This document shows positions 2,161 to 35,868 of a DNA stretch of 35,868 bases, piece after piece. The notes beneath the pieces were generated by a model. The model was given only the letters and a program-made list of their open reading frames with translations. It searched no databases and was not told where the DNA came from. Origin of the DNA: a virus (taxonomy: Duplodnaviria > Heunggongvirae > Uroviricota > Caudoviricetes); the IMG/VR virus record IMGVR_UViG_2609460346_000008, one strand, 5' to 3'. Made by a program: the position numbers and the translations under genes. The number at the start of each line of letters is the position of its first letter. Position 1 is the stretch's first letter.

Positions 2161-2840
2161 CTGGCCTCCAGTTTCTGTTGTTCCTGCCCACTGACCGGGC
2201 GGTGCAGTCTGACGTTCTGCCCTTCACGAAACCCCGCATAGCGCGAGGCGTCGCCATTGCGGCTTCTTCCCGGTTTACGCGCCCTGGTGGTTTGCGTTTG
2301 CGGGTATTTATGTTCCAGCCACTGTTGCATCAGTTCACGCTCATCATCGGTCAGGGCAAAGGACTGTATTTCACTGATAACGGCCAGTACCCAGCCTTCA
2401 GCAAACTGGTCTCCACGGCTGGTACGGGTGGCGTTTTTTATTCTTTTGTTCTGTGCGCTGATATACTGCTGACGCGCCTTTTTCAGCTGGCGGACCAGCA
2501 CTTCCCAGGTGTACGCAGCCAGTGCCGCTCGTTCCCGGTTACCGTAGAACCCCACAGACGGATGCGTGCCGGGGTGAATGATGGAGTTAACACCAAATGC
2601 CTCGCGGATGATGTTCATCAGGCCCAGCATGTAGCGCGGTGGACGGAGACTGCCTGTCGGCCAGTAATGACTGATGGTTTCATCAATATCACTCATAGCA
2701 ATGTCGGAATGTGTGATGCCGTGAACATCCATCAGTTTACGGGCTCGGCGCAGTGCCAGAGCGGCCTCGTGCGGGTTGCCGGATGCGGCCAGCGCCAGCA
2801 ACTTTTTCAGTTTCTCAATGTGTTTATTCTGGTCTGTCAT
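2157..2840 (-). CDS. DUF2786-like early-region protein (Mu semi-essential region type)
   Basis: Start at the ATG at 2840 (MTDQNKHIEKLKKLLALAASGNPHEAALALRRARKLM...), 3 nt after the upstream gene's stop; N-terminal motif resembles the DUF2786 family common in Mu-like prophages. Confidence 0.55.
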   Translation of the reverse strand: MTDQNKHIEKLKKLLALAASGNPHEAALALRRARKLMDVHGITHSDIAMSDIDETISHYWPTGSLRPPRYMLGLMNIIREAFGVNSIIHPGTHPSVGFYGNRERAALAAYTWEVLVRQLKKARQQYISAQNKRIKNATRTSRGDQFAEGWVLAVISEIQSFALTDDERELMQQWLEHKYPQTQTTRARKPGRSRNGDASRYAGFREGQNVRLHRPVSGQEQQKLEAR

Positions 2841-3052
2841 TGTTCTGTATCTCCGGTATTTTTCTGCCGTTTCCATGCCCGGACAGCGTCGGACAGCTCT
2901 TTCAGGCTGTATGCTGCTTTAAGCTTTTCCCATAACCACTGTGTTGTTATGTGCATCAGCAGGGCAGCCAGGGCTGCCCCCGCACTGAGGCATGTCGCCA
3001 GGCCAGTAAGAATCAGTGTCCATGCGGTGATTTCCCTGAGTATGTCAGCCAT
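2837..3052 (-). CDS. Small membrane protein (71 aa)
   Basis: GGGAGG RBS 8 nt upstream of the ATG at 3052; one hydrophobic helix (WTLILTGLATCLSAGAALAALLM). Confidence 0.5.
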   Translation of the reverse strand: MADILREITAWTLILTGLATCLSAGAALAALLMHITTQWLWEKLKAAYSLKELSDAVRAWKRQKNTGDTEQ

Positions 3053-3066
3053 TGAATGCCTCCCGG

Positions 3067-3363
3067 TTACTCGTTCGTGTAAATCACGCCCAGTCGTGCA
3101 GCCAGACGTTCCAGTTTTTTCTGTTTGTGGAAGTCAATCAGCCGGTCCATCCCCTGAAGGCGCAGTTGCTCTGTCATGATTTCCACGTCTGCCAGCTCTG
3201 CCGCGAGGTCACTTTCGCTGCCCTGTCCGTTCAGATTGCGGGCAGCACTGGCCGCCAGTTCAGCGGCCTCTTCTGTCAGTTTCAGGGCCTGTGCGTCCGG
3301 CCCGAAACGCTGCAGGGCCAGACGGTAGAGGGCGGTGCGGGTGAGTTCGGTGTTTCGTGTCAT
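3067..3363 (-). CDS. MazG-like nucleotide pyrophosphohydrolase domain protein (98 aa)
   Basis: Paired acidic helices LTEEAAELAASAA and LAAELADVEIMTEQL match the EExxE...ExxD pattern of all-alpha NTP-PPase (MazG/HisE-like) proteins; RBS GAGGG 7 nt upstream. Confidence 0.5.
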   Translation of the reverse strand: MTRNTELTRTALYRLALQRFGPDAQALKLTEEAAELAASAARNLNGQGSESDLAAELADVEIMTEQLRLQGMDRLIDFHKQKKLERLAARLGVIYTNE

Positions 3364-5939: not shown

Positions 5940-7709
5940 TCAGTTGCCGTTAACAATGCTGATAACACTGCTGCGTGCCGGCGTGGTCAGCGTGGCCATG
6001 ACTTCATCCAGTGCAGCTTCCGGTACGCCGTCCGGGTACTGTGCCGTTAACTGGCGGTAATGTTCCGGCGTCCAGGTAAGGCCGTCGGCGCTGAACTTAT
6101 CGCGCAGGGCTTTCGCGGCCTCCACATGAGTCATGGGACGCTGTTCAGTGCGCGGTCCGCGTACGTCAGAGGCCTGGCCTCGCTTCGGCAGGTAGGCCGG
6201 AAGTGTGGTGTCGTCGATATGTTTATACGGGTCAAGCCGCCCGCCGAACGGCAGCGCCTTCGCCTTGCGTGCGGCAGCTGCATCTGCGGCGTTGTCTGTA
6301 CCGGTGACCAGCGCTTCGGTTTCTTTTGCCGCCATCTGCGCCGGGGTTTCCGGCAGGGCTTTGTAACTTTCGCCAAATACCGCCGCGCCTTCAGCAAAGC
6401 CAAACTCGTTCTTTCTGACCTCTTCGACCAGGAAGAACGTCTCGTGGCCGTCCTCACCGGTCAGAACCACCTGTGCCACATCGCTGCGCCACGGGTTACG
6501 GGTAATCATCAGTTTTTCACCAACCAGTACGCCCGGTACCGTTGATACGTCAAATTCAGTGCCCCGGAACGAGACACGAAGTTTTGGCGTGACTTTGCGG
6601 AGTTCTGGTGCCGCCACAGCCAGTTCACGACATACCTCAACGGAAGGCGCTTTTTTCAGCTGCTCAGCAGTAATCTTCAGCCAGATATCCGTGCGGGTTT
6701 TACCGTGGCGGCTGTGAACAGCCGTGGCGTTAAAGTGGCTGCGCCATTTCGCGGCCAGCGCGTTGAGTTCTTCCAGACTGTGAACCGGCCGGAACTTCAG
6801 ACCCGGCTCCAGCTTGCGTTCGATAATGTCCCGCGCCTTTTCCACCTGTCCGGTGGCGCGGGCGTTATGCGGCTTGTGCGCTATCAGGTCGATGCCCAGT
6901 GAGCGGCACATGTTTTTCGTCATACCCGCGGTGTTTGCCGAGCCGGGGTCGAGATAGAGTATTTTCGGCACACCGTGCAGCACGTCTGCGCCGCCACGCT
7001 CCTGCATGGCGTTGATAAGCACAGAACACAGGTTCTCACCTGATTCCGCGCCCGTCACATACTCAACGTAAATCCAGCCGCTGGCATGGTCGGTAATCTC
7101 GTAACTCCACACGCGGTCACTGGCGATACGGGCAAGGTTAGCGGGCTTGTTCTTGTAGAACTTCGCGCTGTCCATCACCTGCAGCCCTTTATGTCCATTG
7201 CTCAGGTAGTAAAGCGTGCAGAGTGAGGCGTCAATCTGCCAGACATGATTGGGATGCAGACTGGCCACTTCGGTATGCGGCGCAGGGGCATCCAGTTGTT
7301 CCGGGTGCAGGCCATAGTTACGCAGGGCTCGGCTGATGGCATCTTCGGACAACGGGAAAAACTCACCGGTGGTTTCATCTGTTCTGCCTGCGGATATAAA
7401 GCCGTTAGCCCGCAGGGTTTCCACTGCATCCGCGATGGAATAGAGACGCTTACCGTTCTTGCGGGTGGCCTCACGCAGTGTGGCAGATATCAGCGCGGCT
7501 TCGTCGCGGGTCAGGGCGCTGCGCCCGGCATCGGCGCGTTTTTTGCGTTTATCAGTCACAGATACCTCCTTCAGCCTGCGCAGCAGAGTGGCGCGGGACA
7601 TGCCAAGTTCAGCACAGGCAGCGTCGTATATTGCACCGCGTTTACCATGCCCCGCGTCACGTGCCGCGCGGGCTGTTTCAACCAGTTTTTCAGTCAGTGC
7701 CGGGGTCAT
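5940..7709 (-). CDS. DDE transposase (integrase-core/rve fold, Mu/Tn552/TnsB-like) with N-terminal HTH
   Basis: 589 aa; catalytic triad spacing read from the translation: D in HVWQIDAS, D in YLDPGS, E in ATGQVE 36 residues after the second D (D,D-35-E). Confidence 0.85.
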   Translation of the reverse strand: MTPALTEKLVETARAARDAGHGKRGAIYDAACAELGMSRATLLRRLKEVSVTDKRKKRADAGRSALTRDEAALISATLREATRKNGKRLYSIADAVETLRANGFISAGRTDETTGEFFPLSEDAISRALRNYGLHPEQLDAPAPHTEVASLHPNHVWQIDASLCTLYYLSNGHKGLQVMDSAKFYKNKPANLARIASDRVWSYEITDHASGWIYVEYVTGAESGENLCSVLINAMQERGGADVLHGVPKILYLDPGSANTAGMTKNMCRSLGIDLIAHKPHNARATGQVEKARDIIERKLEPGLKFRPVHSLEELNALAAKWRSHFNATAVHSRHGKTRTDIWLKITAEQLKKAPSVEVCRELAVAAPELRKVTPKLRVSFRGTEFDVSTVPGVLVGEKLMITRNPWRSDVAQVVLTGEDGHETFFLVEEVRKNEFGFAEGAAVFGESYKALPETPAQMAAKETEALVTGTDNAADAAAARKAKALPFGGRLDPYKHIDDTTLPAYLPKRGQASDVRGPRTEQRPMTHVEAAKALRDKFSADGLTWTPEHYRQLTAQYPDGVPEAALDEVMATLTTPARSSVISIVNGN

Positions 7710-7724
7710 AGCTTGTCTTCCCTG

Positions 7725-8042
7725 TTATCCGATTCTGGCGGCAATTTTTCTGGCGAGGTCGCACAGTGTTTCGCCATCGCAGGTTTTCACCACGGTATTT
7801 ACCGGTTGCGGTGCAACTACCGGGCGTAATGCTGACTGATTCTGCAGACGTCTTATCTGCTGCATCAGCATCACCTCCATCGTCAGTACAAACGGGTGCG
7901 TCTCCTGTGCGGGTACGCAGATTTCACCGGAAGGGGTCACCACGCGGAAACCCTGCACCATCTCCGGCAGCAGATTACACAGTGCGTGCCCCAGTGCCTC
8001 CGGGCTGTCCATCAGGGTATTTTGTGTGTTATTCGTATTCAT
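7725..8042 (-). CDS. Hypothetical early protein (105 aa)
   Basis: ATG at 8042 overlaps the stop of the upstream gene (TAATG); GGAGG upstream. Confidence 0.5.
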   Translation of the reverse strand: MNTNNTQNTLMDSPEALGHALCNLLPEMVQGFRVVTPSGEICVPAQETHPFVLTMEVMLMQQIRRLQNQSALRPVVAPQPVNTVVKTCDGETLCDLARKIAARIG

Positions 8043-8962
8043 TACTGCATATCCTCCGGTCGGTTGATTTCAGGTTCCGGTTCGGTCAGCCAGGCGGGGG
8101 CATCGTTACCCGATGGAGCGGCCTCAAGGTCAAACGTCTCACGTAATGCATGAACACTGCGTTCAATCTGGCAGACCAGACCGGCCATGAAATCTCTGGG
8201 GGTATCGATCATGTTTTTGGTGCAGTATTCACACAGGGTCTCAAAAACACTGGACAGCTGGACGGCGATAGCCGATTCGGCCTCAACCGCTAATGCCATC
8301 ACTTCCGCCCGCAATTTTTTCAGTTCTTCGTCTGGCGGCGGAGGTTGCAGGCGCGATTTCTTCTCCAGTTTTGTGGCCAGTTCGTTGATTTTTTCGTCCT
8401 TTCCGGCAAGCACCTGTTGCTGAGCTGCGTTGGTTTCGCGCGCTTCACGCAGGGCGGCCTTCAGTTCGCGGCTGGTCATGCGATCAATATCATCAAGCGT
8501 TGCACCGGCGACGGTTCCACCATCAGCTAATGCGTCGAGTTCTTCGTCATCCAGAACCATCAGTTCATATAACTTGGTTTTTCCCAAAACGCTCAGCGCT
8601 GAGCGTTTTGGCTGTTCATCTCCATTGCCGAGAAATTTCACGCTGGCCTGCATCATGCGACGAGCTACCTGTGGTGCTAATCCGAGGTCGTTTTCCAGAA
8701 TATTTGTGAAATCACCATGCGGTTCATTTTCTTTTAAGATGATCAGCCGCTTACCCGCTTCCAACATAGATTCAGCACTCTGCGCCATATAAAAACGTGC
8801 TTCGTGAACGATGCGTTCACGTTCATAAGGCAGTCCATCACCAAACTGCTGCATGATCTCCATGCGATGCTGTGTCATGGCATTCAGGCTGACGTTGAGA
8901 TCATCCGACAGCGGTACATCGGCGTTCAGTTCAGTGTTAATCGGTGATTTGGTACGTCCCAT
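8042..8962 (-). CDS. Hypothetical early protein (306 aa) with acidic/coiled-coil C-terminal half; possibly DUF3102-like
   Basis: AAGGAG RBS 8 nt upstream of the ATG at 8962; the N-terminal region (RFYMAQSAESMLEAGKRLIILKENEPHGDF...) resembles a phage/plasmid domain of unknown function. Family assignment is tentative. Confidence 0.55.
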   Translation of the reverse strand: MGRTKSPINTELNADVPLSDDLNVSLNAMTQHRMEIMQQFGDGLPYERERIVHEARFYMAQSAESMLEAGKRLIILKENEPHGDFTNILENDLGLAPQVARRMMQASVKFLGNGDEQPKRSALSVLGKTKLYELMVLDDEELDALADGGTVAGATLDDIDRMTSRELKAALREARETNAAQQQVLAGKDEKINELATKLEKKSRLQPPPPDEELKKLRAEVMALAVEAESAIAVQLSSVFETLCEYCTKNMIDTPRDFMAGLVCQIERSVHALRETFDLEAAPSGNDAPAWLTEPEPEINRPEDMQ

Positions 8963-8972
8963 TGATTACTCC

Positions 8973-9281
8973 TTACAAACGACTACCTGAAATGACACGT
9001 TGGTTAATTTCGTTAATACGATCCTGTGCACGTGCCATCTCGTTACTGTGGGCCATGGCGATCTGCAGTAACTGGATGCCCGGTGCAAAACGTCCGTTCT
9101 CCAGTTTCAGAGCCAGCCCTTCTTCAATGAGGGTGTTGAGTGCCCGGTTGATGTTTGCCGGTGACTCGTGCAGTGCTGTCGCCAGTTCACCGTTAGAAAT
9201 ACCGTTCAGGGCATGACCGCGCAGCGCTTTGAGTACCCGGAGGATGCGACTGCCGGAGCTTGAAACATTCGTCTTACTCAT
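8973..9281 (-). CDS. Winged-helix DNA-binding protein (IclR/MarR-like HTH)
   Basis: Start at the second ATG at 9281 (MSKTNV...), which has AGAGG at proper spacing; segment ISNGELATALHESPANINRALNTLIEEGLA is HTH-like. Confidence 0.55.
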   Translation of the reverse strand: MSKTNVSSSGSRILRVLKALRGHALNGISNGELATALHESPANINRALNTLIEEGLALKLENGRFAPGIQLLQIAMAHSNEMARAQDRINEINQRVISGSRL

Positions 9282-9333
9282 CTGCATACCTCTTTTGCGA
9301 TATGTGATAACCTTTTACAAAGACTCAAAATAT

Positions 9334-9522
9334 TTAGGCCGCCTGAGCTGTTGATTTCAGTCCCAACTTCACGGCGATTTCATGGGATTTACCGTAACGG
9401 GCTTTGGTCTGCCCGTTGAGAACGCGGTATACCTCATTGCGGTTGTAGCCGTTTTCTTCTGCCCAGCGGGTGAAAGTGATCCCGCGCTGGCGGAAGAGAG
9501 CTTTGACTTGTTCTGCAGTCAT
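9334..9522 (-). CDS. Ner/Cro-like small DNA-binding regulator (first gene of the early operon)
   Basis: 62 aa, HTH-like; AAGGAG RBS 8 nt upstream; divergent from the repressor gene across an operator-containing intergenic region, as for Mu ner versus c. Confidence 0.55.
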   Translation of the reverse strand: MTAEQVKALFRQRGITFTRWAEENGYNRNEVYRVLNGQTKARYGKSHEIAVKLGLKSTAQAA

Positions 9523-9574
9523 CGTTGTCTCCTTTGTTGATGCAATGATGTTTGCCTTATATGTGTTAGATTAT

Positions 9575-9592
9575 TGCTCATAATTATGAGCA
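9575..9592. promoter_or_regulatory. Operator: 18-bp perfect palindrome TGCTCATAATTATGAGCA between ner and the repressor gene
   Basis: Perfect dyad read from sequence; a third half-site copy TTATGAGCA at 9614-9622 overlaps the repressor start codon. Confidence 0.55.
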
Positions 9593-9615
9593 TATCAAGA
9601 TAGAGATTCACTTTT

Positions 9616-9972
9616 ATGAGCAAAGATATAGGAGAGCGCGTTATTTCTGTGAGGAAGAAAGCAGGGTTGAACCAGAGAGAATTTGCAGCTCGTTTAGGTA
9701 TTTCTAATGGTGGTATCAGTCAGATTGAAAATGGAAAGGCGATGCCTGGAGGGGAGTTTCTGTTAAAGATGCATCAAGAGTTTAATGTTGATGTAAATTG
9801 GTTGCTCACTGGAATGAGCACAGATGGTATGACTAGAAACCAGAATCAAATTTCCCCAGAAAAACAAAAACTAATAGATACTTTTGACGACATGACACCA
9901 GACCAACAACGCTCATTTCTTGAGATTGGGCGATTCTATACTCAGCCAAAACCAGGAAAAATCGCAGGCTGA
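9616..9972 (+). CDS. Phage repressor, XRE-family HTH (c-like immunity repressor)
   Basis: 118 aa; HTH QREFAARLGISNGGISQIENGK near the N-terminus; no S24 peptidase domain; gene visibly A+T-rich relative to neighbours; weak RBS. Confidence 0.8.
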   Translation: MSKDIGERVISVRKKAGLNQREFAARLGISNGGISQIENGKAMPGGEFLLKMHQEFNVDVNWLLTGMSTDGMTRNQNQISPEKQKLIDTFDDMTPDQQRSFLEIGRFYTQPKPGKIAG

Positions 9973-10057
9973 TACTGACCCGGACACAAAGGACAGGTGG
10001 TTGATCTGGATGCTTTCAGAAAACATCGCCAGTGACATAGTGGAAGTTGTTTGGTTT

Positions 10058-10090
10058 ACCGGAAAGCATTGTGCTTTCCGGTTTTGTTTC
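10058..10090. terminator. Bidirectional rho-independent terminator between the repressor and methyltransferase genes
   Basis: 10-bp perfect stem ACCGGAAAGC/GCTTTCCGGT, 5-nt loop, T-rich tracts on both sides (ttggttt ... tttgtttc). Confidence 0.7.
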
Positions 10091-10853
10091 AGAAGTTGCA
10101 GATTAGCAGTTCACGGCGCGGCGTGGGTTTACCCGCCAGACTGTAGTTGATATTCACTGTCTGTATGTTCAGTCCAGTGAACACCTCGCGCATCTGCGGG
10201 ATGTCGTTCACCGAAATTATCATTTTTCCTCTGATGCACCGGGCCAGCTCTGCCAGCCGCGAGTAGTTCCCTTCAGGAAAATCCACACCATAGCCTTCCG
10301 TACCCAGGTACGGTGGGTCGCAGTAGAACAGCGTGTGCGGACGATCATAACGCTCAATGCACTGTTGCCAGTCCATGTGTTCTATGACTGTTCTGGAAAG
10401 CCGCAGGTGTGCCGCTGACAGTTCTTCTTCAATACGCAGCAGGTTGAAGCGTGGCGGGGATGTGGTGGAGGTACCGAAGCTGTGCTCTGCCACCTTGCCG
10501 CCAAACGCCTGCTTCTGAAGGTAGTAGAACCGTGCCGCACGCTGGATATCCGTCAGTGTTTCTTCCGGGGTGATCTGCAGCCATTTGTAGATCTGACGGC
10601 TGACCAGCGCCCATTTGAACTGGCGGACAAATTCTTCCAGGTGATGCTTTACCACCCGGTACAGATTCACCAGTTCACCGTTGATATCATTGATGACTTC
10701 GATCTTGCCGGGTGTCTTAAGAAAATAGAGCGCTGCTGCCCCACAAAACGGCTCCACATAACATTCATGCGCCGGAAACAGCGGCAGAATGTGTTTTGCA
10801 AGGCGGCGTTTGCCACCAATCCACGGCACGATGGGTAATGTCTGCATTTTCAT
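10089..10853 (-). CDS. dam: DNA N6-adenine methyltransferase, Dam (D12) class; orphan (no nuclease partner seen)
   Basis: Motif I FCGAAAL and motif IV DPPY (FYCDPPYLG); N-terminus PIVPWIGGKRRLA typical of the Dam family; start placed at the internal ATG at 10853 (MKMQTL...); the track ORF extends to 10943. Confidence 0.85.
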   Translation of the reverse strand: MKMQTLPIVPWIGGKRRLAKHILPLFPAHECYVEPFCGAAALYFLKTPGKIEVINDINGELVNLYRVVKHHLEEFVRQFKWALVSRQIYKWLQITPEETLTDIQRAARFYYLQKQAFGGKVAEHSFGTSTTSPPRFNLLRIEEELSAAHLRLSRTVIEHMDWQQCIERYDRPHTLFYCDPPYLGTEGYGVDFPEGNYSRLAELARCIRGKMIISVNDIPQMREVFTGLNIQTVNINYSLAGKPTPRRELLICNF

Positions 10854-34419: not shown

Positions 34420-35868
34420 ATGGGAAACCTGAATGAAACAGAAAAGTGGGAAGAAAATATCTATCAACTGGAGACATCAGATCCGGTTCTGGGTGGTGCT
34501 GACGGGATATCAAATCGAGCCCCCCGGCAACTGGCAAACAGGACGAAATGGCTGAAGAAAAAAACGGAGGAAGCCGCACAGTCACTGGCTGAACACGTAC
34601 GTTCCCGTAACCACCCGGACGCGACACTGACAGCTAAGGGGTTCACCCAACTGAGCAGTGCCACCAACAGCACCTCTGAAACGCTGGCCGCCACACCAAA
34701 AGCGGTCAAGGCTGCATACGACCTGGCAGCCGGCAAGGCGCCTGCCAGCCACACTCACCCGTGGAGTCAGATAACGGGAGTGCCTGCGGCTTCACTGACG
34801 GCAAAAGGCACCGTACAACTGAGCAGCGCCACGGACAGTCAATCAGAAACTGAGGCTGCCACGCCGAAGGCTGTGAAAATCGCGTATGATCTGGCCCGGG
34901 GAAAATACACAGCCCAGGATGCAACAACGACCCGTAAAGGGATCGTACAACTGAGCAGTGCCATCAACAACACGTCTGAAACGCTGGCCGCCACACCGAA
35001 AGCGGTCAAGGCTGCATACGACCTGGCAGCCGGCAAGGCGCCTGCCAGCCACACTCACCCGTGGAGTCAGATAACGGGAGTGCCTGCGGCTTCACTGACG
35101 GCAAAAGGCACCGTACAACTGAGCAGCGCCACGGACAGTCAATCAGAAACTGAGGCTGCCACGCCGAAGGCGGTCAAGGCTGCATACGACCTTGCAGCCG
35201 GCAAGGCGCCCGTCAGCCACACTCACCCGTGGAGTCAGATAACGGGAGTGCCTGCTGCCTCGCTGACGGCAAAAGGCACCGTACAATTGAGCAGTGCCAT
35301 CAACAGCACGTCTGAAATACTGGCCGCCACACCGAAAGCGGTCAAGGCTGCATACGACCTTGCAGCCGGCAAGGCGCCCGTCAGCCACACTCACCCGTGG
35401 AGTCAGATAACGGGAGTGCCTGCTGCCTCGCTGACGGCAAAAGGCACCGTACAATTGAGCAGTGCCATCAACAGCACGTCTGAAGTGCTGGCCGCTACAC
35501 CGAAAGCTGTCAAGGCTGCATACGATCTGGCAAACGGAAAACAACCGGCAGATGCCACGCTCACTGCTCTGGCAGGACTTTCCACTGCAGCAGATCGGTT
35601 GCCTTATTTTACCGGAGCAGACCGAGCAGCGCTGGCAACCCTTACAGCTATTGGTCGCGCTATTATCGCTAAGGGCAGTATAAAAGATGTCCTCAATTAC
35701 CTTGGTTTGGGGGAAGGCTCTGCATTGCCTGTTGGTGTACCGGTTCCGTGGCCCACCGCCACACCGCCAGAAGGCTGGTTAAAGTGCGACGGGCGCGCCT
35801 TTACAAAAGAACAATATCCTGTTCTGGCCAGAGCCTACCCGACCCTCCGTCTTCCCGATTTACGCGGT
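34420..35868 (+). CDS. Tail fibre protein, 3'-truncated by the window end
   Basis: Open frame from the ATG at 34420 (GGGAG 9 nt upstream) to the last base of the window with no stop, which is why it is absent from the track; about 56-aa tail-fibre repeats (TAKGTVQLSSA...ATPKAVKAAYDLA...SHTHPWSQITGVPAASL); C-terminal visible part PVPWP...GWLKCDGRAF...YP.L...YP resembles conserved fibre segments. Confidence 0.8.
   Translation, partial: MGNLNETEKWEENIYQLETSDPVLGGADGISNRAPRQLANRTKWLKKKTEEAAQSLAEHVRSRNHPDATLTAKGFTQLSSATNSTSETLAATPKAVKAAYDLAAGKAPASHTHPWSQITGVPAASLTAKGTVQLSSATDSQSETEAATPKAVKIAYDLARGKYTAQDATTTRKGIVQLSSAINNTSETLAATPKAVKAAYDLAAGKAPASHTHPWSQITGVPAASLTAKGTVQLSSATDSQSETEAATPKAVKAAYDLAAGKAPVSHTHPWSQITGVPAASLTAKGTVQLSSAINSTSEILAATPKAVKAAYDLAAGKAPVSHTHPWSQITGVPAASLTAKGTVQLSSAINSTSEVLAATPKAVKAAYDLANGKQPADATLTALAGLSTAADRLPYFTGADRAALATLTAIGRAIIAKGSIKDVLNYLGLGEGSALPVGVPVPWPTATPPEGWLKCDGRAFTKEQYPVLARAYPTLRLPDLRG
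34620..35530 (+). repeat. Tandem repeat array (about 168-bp units) inside the tail fibre gene, including a near-identical 190-bp duplication 300 bp apart
   Basis: 34681-34871 and 34981-35171 are nearly identical (one mismatch noted); 168-bp periodicity at 35221 versus 35389; accounts for the shadow ORFs on the minus strand here. Confidence 0.85.

Follow-up and report, generated by a model that had tools for sequence, protein, structure and literature searches.

The c/Ner switch of phage Mu (Pe/Pc), a transposable phage, contains three repressor sites, O1 to O3, and its early operon starts with Ner. In the operators of phages 434 and P22, the outer arms are conserved, and the central segment is free and mostly A/T. 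Auxiliary operators that act by looping are known from several systems, namely lac (O2 in lacZ), gal (OI in galE), the CI repressor of TP901-1 (OD) and phage 186 (FL and FR). SinR of Bacillus subtilis binds paired sites as a tetramer.

Among the B3-like transposable phages, RepC of the Pseudomonas phage Fc02 is a proven immunity repressor, as demonstrated by the ts mutant G64E and the immunity conferred by the cloned gene (PMC9936078). The proximal promoter pC2 of this phage overlaps pE and appears to be active only after inactivation of the repressor, and the lysogenic transcript originates mainly from a distal upstream promoter (PMC9936078). Predicted promoters are given for the B3/Fc02 phages in the same work, and operators are not described (PMC9936078). 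In the literature, we found neither operators of B3/BcepMu-like repressors nor papers on phage PhiKM, whose immunity region is discussed below; an earlier description, for example in the B3 genome paper, is possible.

Prophage and gene organization of the immunity region

The whole stretch of DNA that was analyzed, here called the window, has a length of 35,868 bp and is a B3/BcepMu-like transposable prophage. The immunity region is located about 10 kb from one genome end, in a B3-like layout. Its sequence (701 bp) recurs with at least 99% identity in 391 complete E. coli genomes, many of them ST131, and is 100% identical to that of Escherichia phage PhiKM (Bcepmuvirus). In the GenBank record of PhiKM the repressor gene is unannotated. 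The two divergent genes of the region are the following:

9334-9522, minus strand: Ner-like first gene of the early operon, 62 aa, BcepMu gp16 family
9616-9972, plus strand: immunity repressor gene, 118 aa, with an XRE/434-P22-like HTH (aa 5-65), a linker and a C-terminal two-helix hairpin (aa 81-109)

The initial annotation had described a divergent region of 93 bp, and positions 9523-9615 do separate the 62-aa gene from the repressor ORF. On the minus strand, the 62-aa gene is followed by an IclR-like HTH gene, a DUF3102 gene, a 105-aa ORF for which no family match was found, and the gene of a 589-aa DDE (rve) transposase. This is the B3-like/Bcepmuvirus gene order, with the repressor gene divergent from a gp16/Ner-like gene, the DDE transposase gene located later, and Pe in the short intergenic region.

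The name "ner", which had been given to the 62-aa gene, is appropriate as far as position and annotation are concerned, and we therefore refer to the product as Ner-like. By family, however, the protein belongs to BcepMu gp16 (TIGR04111, 97.4 bits, cutoff 34; also phrog_925), and its score against the Pfam family of Mu Ner (HTH_35, PF13693) is 17.9 bits, which is under the cutoff of 25. The nucleotide identity of the gene to its counterparts in B3, Fc02 and Ps59 is 70-76%.

The O1 dyad and the predicted early promoter

A consensus scan of positions 7600-10150 found only one sigma-70-like promoter, TTGATA-17-AATAAT on the minus strand, which is the predicted leftward early promoter Pe of the ner-like/transposase operon. 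Its elements and the probable primary operator are located as follows:

9593-9598, minus strand: -35 hexamer of Pe, TTGATA, found by the consensus scan; most related loci have a TTGACA-like hexamer at the same place
9570-9575, minus strand: -10 hexamer of Pe, AATAAT, whose first base is also the first base of O1
9575-9592, no strand: O1, the probable primary operator, an 18-bp dyad TGCTCA-TAATTA-TGAGCA with 6-bp arms and an A/T-only centre

As already proposed in the initial annotation, TGCTCATAATTATGAGCA at 9575-9592 is a perfect 18-bp palindrome, equal to its own reverse complement. Allowing up to 3 mismatches, the 35,868-bp window contains no further match, and 0 matches were obtained in 100 shuffles. 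Its half-site TTATGAGCA is present in exactly 3 copies in the window, at 9575-9583 (minus strand), 9584-9592 (plus strand) and 9614-9622 (plus strand); any others need a mismatch. O1 fills the 17-bp spacer of Pe, plus one base of either hexamer.

The arrangement was compared with that of 80 loci anchored on the Ner-like gene, taken from species-representative genomes, and 15 loci anchored on the repressor gene, taken from viral contigs. In most of the approximately 85 loci scanned, a TTGACA-like -35 element, a spacer of 16-18 bp and a -10 element can be observed, and a type-specific dyad is located in the spacer. What the family has in common is the position of the dyad in the spacer, and not the sequence of the spacer.

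Dyads and repressor DNA-binding domains in heteroimmune relatives

The megablast homology between the window and E. coli genomes ends exactly at 9574/9575 (query position 275, which is window position 9574). Pairwise blastn comparisons with heteroimmune E. coli prophages revealed flanks that are 94-98% identical, enclosing a segment without homology. This segment extends over 9575-9857 in the comparison with the prophage of E. coli 83972, over approximately 9576-9847 with two type-D prophages, and over 9586-9804 with a type-F phage. The following feature was delimited by these pairwise blastn boundaries:

9575-9857, no strand: exchangeable immunity cassette, 283 bp, containing O1, the HTH-coding part of the repressor gene and two further operators, O2 and O3, described below

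When the prophage of strain 83972 is compared with the window, the Ner-like proteins are identical at 62 of 62 residues and the IclR-like proteins at 102 of 103, and the HTH of the repressor is different. The spacer of Pe is occupied there by GGTGCAG-ATTA-CCTCACC. The dyads of further cassettes are TGAGAAC-TATT-GTTCTCA, TATCCCA-ATAA-TGGGATA and TGTCTAA-N4-TTAGACA. The repressor of the last of these types shares only its C-terminal 60 residues with the window repressor (85% identity), and its HTH is different. Since the same C-terminal module is thus combined with another HTH and another dyad, the specificity maps to the N-terminal domain.

The initial annotation had pointed out that a palindrome missing beside the same repressor would speak against its reading; we searched for such cases and found none. 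The repressors with the same HTH are 57-78% identical to that of the window, and the O1 arms TGCTCA/TGAGCA are kept beside them. The centres of O1 vary among these relatives (TAATTA, TTATTT, CAATAA, TTATTA and TTTAAA), which comprise Klebsiella-, Serratia- and Citrobacter-type prophages, metagenomes, and one non-transposable phage with a pRha neighbour. Three Pseudomonas loci (L021, L022 and L055) also contain TGCTCA-N6-TGAGCA. The HTH of their repressors is unrelated, and we rejected them as recognition homologues and use them in support of the architecture only.

The Ner-like and IclR-like HTH proteins are both small DNA-binding proteins encoded beside the palindrome, and the corresponding region of Mu is where Ner acts, so that either of them, and not the 118-aa repressor, might be the protein that binds O1. 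We consider this extremely improbable. The prophage of strain 83972 has a wholly different dyad despite its conserved Ner-like and IclR-like proteins, the dyad tracks the N-terminal domain of the repressor, and the Ner-like protein has a better candidate site in a separate conserved dyad:

9542-9555, no strand: candidate Ner-like operator GCAA-TGATGT-TTGC, in the shared leader of the early transcript

In 34 of 71 loci, which belong to several bacterial orders, a GCAA-N6-TTGC dyad keeps a constant distance from O1, and it is this conservation that makes 9542-9555 a candidate operator of the Ner-like protein. As the dyad in the promoter spacer differs together with the HTH of the repressor while the Ner-like protein stays 100% identical, we assign O1 to the repressor. 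The earlier proposal that the dyad is a repressor operator on the early promoter is therefore well supported: the dyad fills the spacer of Pe, co-varies with the repressor HTH, and keeps its arms down to 57% repressor identity. The cassette swaps on identical Ner-like backgrounds represent a natural, ready-made specificity experiment.

A putative second operator over the start codon

The start codon of the repressor gene is covered by a second site:

9605-9622, no strand: O2, a putative weak second operator GATTCA-CTTTTA-TGAGCA, covering the ATG at 9616-9618, with its centre 30 bp from the centre of O1

The third half-site of the initial annotation, TTATGAGCA at 9614-9622, does cover the ATG of the repressor gene; it is, however, the consensus arm of the 18-bp O2 and not an isolated half-site. 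The right arm of O2 corresponds to the consensus, and the left arm is weak (3 of 6 bases), with only TCA kept. The right arm is present in all relatives, including L104, which has a GTG start (GTGAGCA), and the left arm reads xxTTCA in most of them. Codon 2 of the repressor gene (S2) is AGC in all 5 of the 5 aligned genes.

Repeated units can also be observed in other operator types. GTGCAG-N5-CTCAC occurs twice, 31 bp apart, in one type, and GGTGGGATATTTACACC occurs twice, also 31 bp apart, in another; elsewhere TGTCTAAAAATTTAGACA is followed by TGTCCATTAATTTAGAAA, and GTGTATA recurs over an ATG. A second-site test was performed in the interval +22 to +40, comparing the own O1 of each type with the O1 of the 28 other types and using a composition-preserving control. 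For 15 of the 29 types, the own O1 scored better than those of the other types (p<=0.1; Fisher 1.5e-8), at offsets of 29-34 bp. In the control intervals, p was 0.98 upstream and 0.33 far downstream.

A putative third operator inside the repressor gene

Besides the sites of the initial annotation, we found a perfect TGCTCA-N6-TGAGCA that it had not listed:

9803-9820, no strand: O3, a putative intragenic operator TGCTCA-CTGGAA-TGAGCA (TGCTCACTGGAATGAGCA), in codons 63-68 (LLTGMS), 228 bp from O1

The motif TGCTCA-N6-TGAGCA has 2 exact matches in the window, O1 and O3, as compared to 0.01 expected, and no exact site was found elsewhere in the 35.9 kb. Two sites with 2 mismatches were discarded as further operators: the one at 6-23 is ordinary coding sequence, and the one at 10166-10183 also occurs beside a different repressor type. 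O3 is located inside the swapped cassette, close to its right edge.

It could be argued that only O1 is functional, and that coding (Met-Ser and WLLTGMS) together with chance produced the TGAGCA at the start codon and the dyad at 9803-9820. The hexamer TGAGCA is common, with 34 copies in the window (5 of them inside 9575-9820), WLLTG is widespread among XRE repressors, and ATGAGCA also starts unrelated genes. An exact dyad matching at 12 of 12 arm positions is nevertheless expected only 0.01 times per window, and yet it lies 228 bp from O1. The arms of O3 are invariant in six transposable-phage relatives with repressors 57-78% identical (L091, L094, L095, L006, L100 and L101), and its centres are CTGGAA, CAGGAG, CTGGAG, CAGGAA and GTGGGG.

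The codon usage of five aligned repressor genes also argues against a coding by-product. A single codon is kept at 13 of 65 invariant degenerate residues, and against this background the six-fold codons in the operator arms (S2, L64 and S68) are invariant in 3 of 3 cases, as compared to 1 of 14 others (hypergeometric p ~0.006). The invariant codons in the arms of O3 are CTC and AGC. The arms moreover survive amino acid and start codon changes: in L101, a T65S change is written AGT, preserving the final A of TGCTCA, and the right arm of O2 withstands the change from ATG to GTG mentioned above. In L104, WLLTG is encoded by TGG CTC CTT ACA GGA and there is no O3 site, which means that the peptide does not force the DNA sequence. 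This pattern of codons shows that the arms of O2 and O3 are under selection at the DNA level.

The distribution of O3 among the operator types is more restricted than that of the second site. O3 is missing from L104 and L105, which agrees with the idea that only O1 is functional, as does the marginal signal over 29 types (7 types at p<=0.1, Fisher 0.058, with scoring of whole 19-mers). Type B has a perfect dyad, AGTGCAG-TTAT-CTGCACT, at +176, with the same sequence in E. coli, Mixta and Klebsiella, and in type D a half-site, TATCCCAAAAATG, is conserved at +252 to +261. In view of the marginal signal, we restrict O3 to types A and B and, with less confidence, type D, and regard it as a feature of some lineages and not of the whole family. 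No common helical phase was found among the O1-O3 distances of the different types (175, 228 and 256 bp).

A function of O1 alone would leave without explanation the second copy at +29 to +34 in unrelated operator types, as well as the location of O1, O2 and O3 all within the swapped cassette, and we consider it unlikely. It is probable that O1 would act as the operator of the repressor on Pe, with O2 and O3 as genuine auxiliary sites.

The repressor protein

The repressor matches PF01381 (HTH_3) with 55.8 bits (cutoff 23), and its matches in Pfam, NCBIfam and PHROG are all XRE/CI-like. The N-terminal domain is matched in sequence by the 434 repressor (phmmer E 3e-8). In an AlphaFold model with a mean pLDDT of 82, a five-helix domain (residues 5-65), a low-confidence linker and a two-helix hairpin (residues 81-109) can be distinguished, and the N-terminal domain superposes on the DNA-binding domain of P22 C2 with a TM score of 0.91 and an rmsd of 1.2 A. 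The solved structures of this P22 domain are operator complexes. The protein thus has the features of the XRE/Cro-CI group, which are a five-helix HTH_3 domain and dyads at a divergent promoter (O1 perfect, O2 partial, O3 perfect). Mu c-like features, i.e. a winged helix resembling the N-terminal part of MuA, were not found in this XRE-type protein.

Over its full length, the repressor has its best structural match in SinR (Foldseek E 3e-4, 111 columns), with a sequence identity of 23%, and Fc02 RepC aligns with it from end to end in BLASTP (31% identity, E 2e-20). A search of the 118-aa protein for an S24 peptidase domain gave no Peptidase_S24 match, and the C-terminal part consists of the two-helix hairpin only. 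The repressor is not of the SOS-cleavable CI type. The hairpin module is common to repressors with four different HTH types and is likely, by analogy with SinR, to be a dimerisation or tetramerisation element.

Expression of the repressor gene

The consensus scan of 7600-10150, in which Pe alone was found, did not locate a promoter of the repressor gene, and no counterpart of the distal pC1 promoter of Fc02 (olg1-olg2 unit) was found in the same interval. One candidate was read from the sequence:

9564-9572, plus strand: candidate proximal repressor promoter, extended -10-like TGTTAGATT, overlapping the -10 hexamer of Pe

TGTTAGATT is conserved only within the shared enteric block. The overlap with Pe agrees with the overlapping pC2 and pE reported for B3 and Fc02 (PMC9936078). 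In other types, a plus-strand -10 element beside O1 was rejected as a by-product of Pe anchoring. A second candidate, GAGATT at 9603-9608, has no -35 element and lies 7 nt before the ATG; it is conserved in close relatives and would give a leaderless mRNA. It was rejected as a general repressor promoter because some types carry a Shine-Dalgarno sequence at that place. Neither TGTTAGATT nor GAGATT is a convincing promoter.

The initial annotation had suggested that the repressor might regulate its own translation or transcription start, as well as the early promoter. We discard regulation of translation, because a protein bound to DNA cannot block the ribosome. Control at the RNA level could take another form, in which the left arm of O1, in a transcript started upstream, pairs with the half-site and hides the AUG, or O1 itself forms a hairpin. 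No obvious Shine-Dalgarno sequence precedes the repressor gene, which would suit such control, and the lysogenic transcript of Fc02 reads through the region from upstream (PMC9936078). The minimum-free-energy fold of 9566-9640 does pair 9574-9583 with 9613-9623 (-14.6 kcal/mol), but it is no better than the folds of shuffled sequences (z -1.8; 12 of 200 as good), and a dyad with a repeated arm yields such a pairing automatically. Moreover, direct repeats of asymmetric units (GGTGGGATATTTACACC and GTGCAG-N5-CTCAC, each present twice) are used by other types, which fits recognition by a protein, and neither O3 nor the position in the promoter spacer would be explained by RNA pairing. We consider control at the RNA level very unlikely, and retain binding of the repressor to DNA as our reading.

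Proposed mechanism of the switch and its significance

We propose that a repressor dimer bound to O1 would cover the spacer of Pe, and that RNA polymerase would thereby be excluded from Pe and the ner-like/transposase operon kept off. Given its A/T-only centre, and by analogy with the 434 and P22 operators, O1 would be the strongest of the three sites. O2, which lies approximately three helical turns from O1 and has one good arm, would probably be filled cooperatively. O3, with its perfect arms and G/C-containing centre, would probably be bridged to O1/O2 through the C-terminal hairpin, looping 228 bp of DNA.

The sequence and its comparison with relatives demonstrate the sites, their placement on Pe, their co-variation with the HTH and the selection on their arms, and from there we infer the binding and the cooperativity of the repressor. 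An oligomeric state is suggested by the resemblance of the predicted fold to SinR and by the shared C-terminal hairpin. Looping between O1/O2 and O3 is put forward as a tentative but serious possibility. O1/O2 would overlie any proximal promoter of the repressor gene and O3 falls within its transcript, so that the transcription of this gene would also be damped, and we lean towards such a negative autoregulation. The behaviour of pC2 in Fc02, which overlaps pE and appears to be active only once the repressor is inactivated, agrees with this (PMC9936078).

O1 to O3, Pe and the 283-bp cassette provide a testable map of prophage silencing, for a prophage present in about 390 complete E. coli genomes, with ST131 and other clinical isolates accounting for many of these. 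The cassette map also shows an exchange of immunity specificity among relatives in Escherichia, Klebsiella, Serratia, Pseudomonas and others. A wider generalization would be that B3/BcepMu-like phages share a looped three-site design, with the distal site in the codons of the repressor and a cassette swapped onto a common C-terminal module. We regard this as doubtful; if it is true, heteroimmune repressors present in one cell could form mixed oligomers and disturb the immunity of each other.

Comparison with known repressor systems

The closest studied relative of the locus is the Fc02/B3 system. Fc02 shares with it the divergent Ner-like first early gene, the short intergenic region and a repressor homologous over its full length. 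In addition, Fc02 has GGGAC-N6-GTCCC in the spacer of pE and a second GGGAC over the ATG. The two loci differ in operator sequence and in the spacing between O1 and O2, which is 24 bp in Fc02 and 30 bp here. Furthermore, Fc02 showed no intragenic third site, and its pC1/olg1-olg2 unit was not found in the window.

The likeness to 434 and P22 C2 consists of the five-helix XRE domain and of dyads whose outer arms are conserved around a variable centre and which are spaced by roughly 2-3 helical turns across divergent promoters. Unlike those repressors, the one described here has a two-helix hairpin in place of an S24 peptidase/RecA-cleavable C-terminal domain. The main site is located in the promoter spacer and not over a hexamer, O2 covers the start codon, O3 lies within the coding sequence of the repressor, and the phage is transposable. 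With the Mu switch, the locus has in common that the repressor gene and the early operon are divergent, that this operon encodes first a small Ner-like regulator and then the transposase genes, and that there are three sites. It differs from Mu in its XRE repressor, which is not of the Mu c type, its gp16-family Ner-like protein, its simple dyads and its B3-like layout.

As in lac, gal, TP901-1 and phage 186, a strong promoter-proximal site is accompanied by a site of the same sequence that lies a few hundred bp off within a coding region, and the arm conservation and the codon test indicate that O3, the distant site here, is under selection. Here, however, the distal site is in the gene of the repressor itself and is kept by synonymous codons, and the looping is a proposal. 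SinR resembles the repressor in its size (about 110 aa) and in the combination of an XRE HTH with a short helical module for multimerisation at the C-terminus; it differs in its cellular role, its operator and its control by the antagonist SinI. As the switch is of a familiar type, the value of the analysis lies in annotation and experimental design and not in a new principle. Taken together, these comparisons place the switch among the conventional ones, as a repressor-operator system of the 434/P22-like kind in a Mu-like gene order.

A conserved dyad in the early leader

In order of position, the features of the window described here are the following.

9542-9555, dyad GCAA-TGATGT-TTGC, within the early transcript's shared leader
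9848-9972, plus strand, two-helix C-terminal module of the repressor (residues ~79-118)
10058-10082, strong terminator-like hairpin with an 11-pair stem and a T run after it
10166-10183, palindrome TGTTCAGTCCAGTGAACA, within the 3'-terminal part of the methylase gene
34936-35532, near the right end, 168-bp tandem repeat (3.6 copies, 89% identity)

The leader dyad lies ~33 bp to the left of O1, the primary repressor operator dyad, and it was observed at this fixed distance in 34 of the 71 non-redundant related loci (21 of them exact), which include loci of Pseudomonas, Methylomicrobium and Lysobacterales. The conserved Ner-like protein is a candidate to bind this dyad as its operator. The gene of this protein is the second one in some related loci (L100 and L099), where the first gene beside the conserved leader and operator encodes a 182-aa Mor-domain protein (859-1407 in L100).

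Operator-like sequences and RNA folding

When the whole window was searched for TGCTCA-N6-TGAGCA with up to 3 mismatches, 36 matches were found, versus a shuffle-based expectation of 19.4 +/- 4.6; the excess may stem from codon structure. The palindrome TGTTCAGTCCAGTGAACA resembles O1, from which it differs by two symmetric changes. Since it is also present beside a different repressor type, in L097 and L098, it is probably unrelated to the window repressor. The repressor gene and the Dam-like methylase gene converge, and the terminator-like hairpin lies between them. Near the right end, the 168-bp repeat codes for a recurring segment of the ...ATPKAVKAAYD... type, and therefore probably belongs to a tail-fibre gene.

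In the RNA fold predicted for positions 9566-9640 (-14.6 kcal/mol), the left arm of O1 pairs with the half-site over the repressor AUG; compared with shuffles, the fold of this segment was not significant (z -1.8).

Comparison with repressors of related loci

The C-terminal two-helix module is common to four HTH types, and its nucleotides are 94-98% identical among heteroimmune prophages (the window and the matching parts of L001, L004, L097 and L103). Mixed oligomers of different repressors, formed through this common module, seem possible in polylysogens. Three Pseudomonas loci (L021, L022 and L055) have the operator arms of the window, TGCTCA-N6-TGAGCA, and in these loci the ATG is overlapped by a complete second dyad. 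The HTH of their repressors (GVARNTIYNWMAKGN) is unrelated to that of the window repressor, and the combination of identical arms with an unrelated HTH suggests an apparent convergence. The 118-aa repressor is also encoded by phage PhiKM (PQ738613.1), at positions 2817-3173 of locus L107, and the deposited record has no CDS for it; a 41-aa ORF is annotated instead on the strand opposite the repressor, at locus positions 3114-3239.
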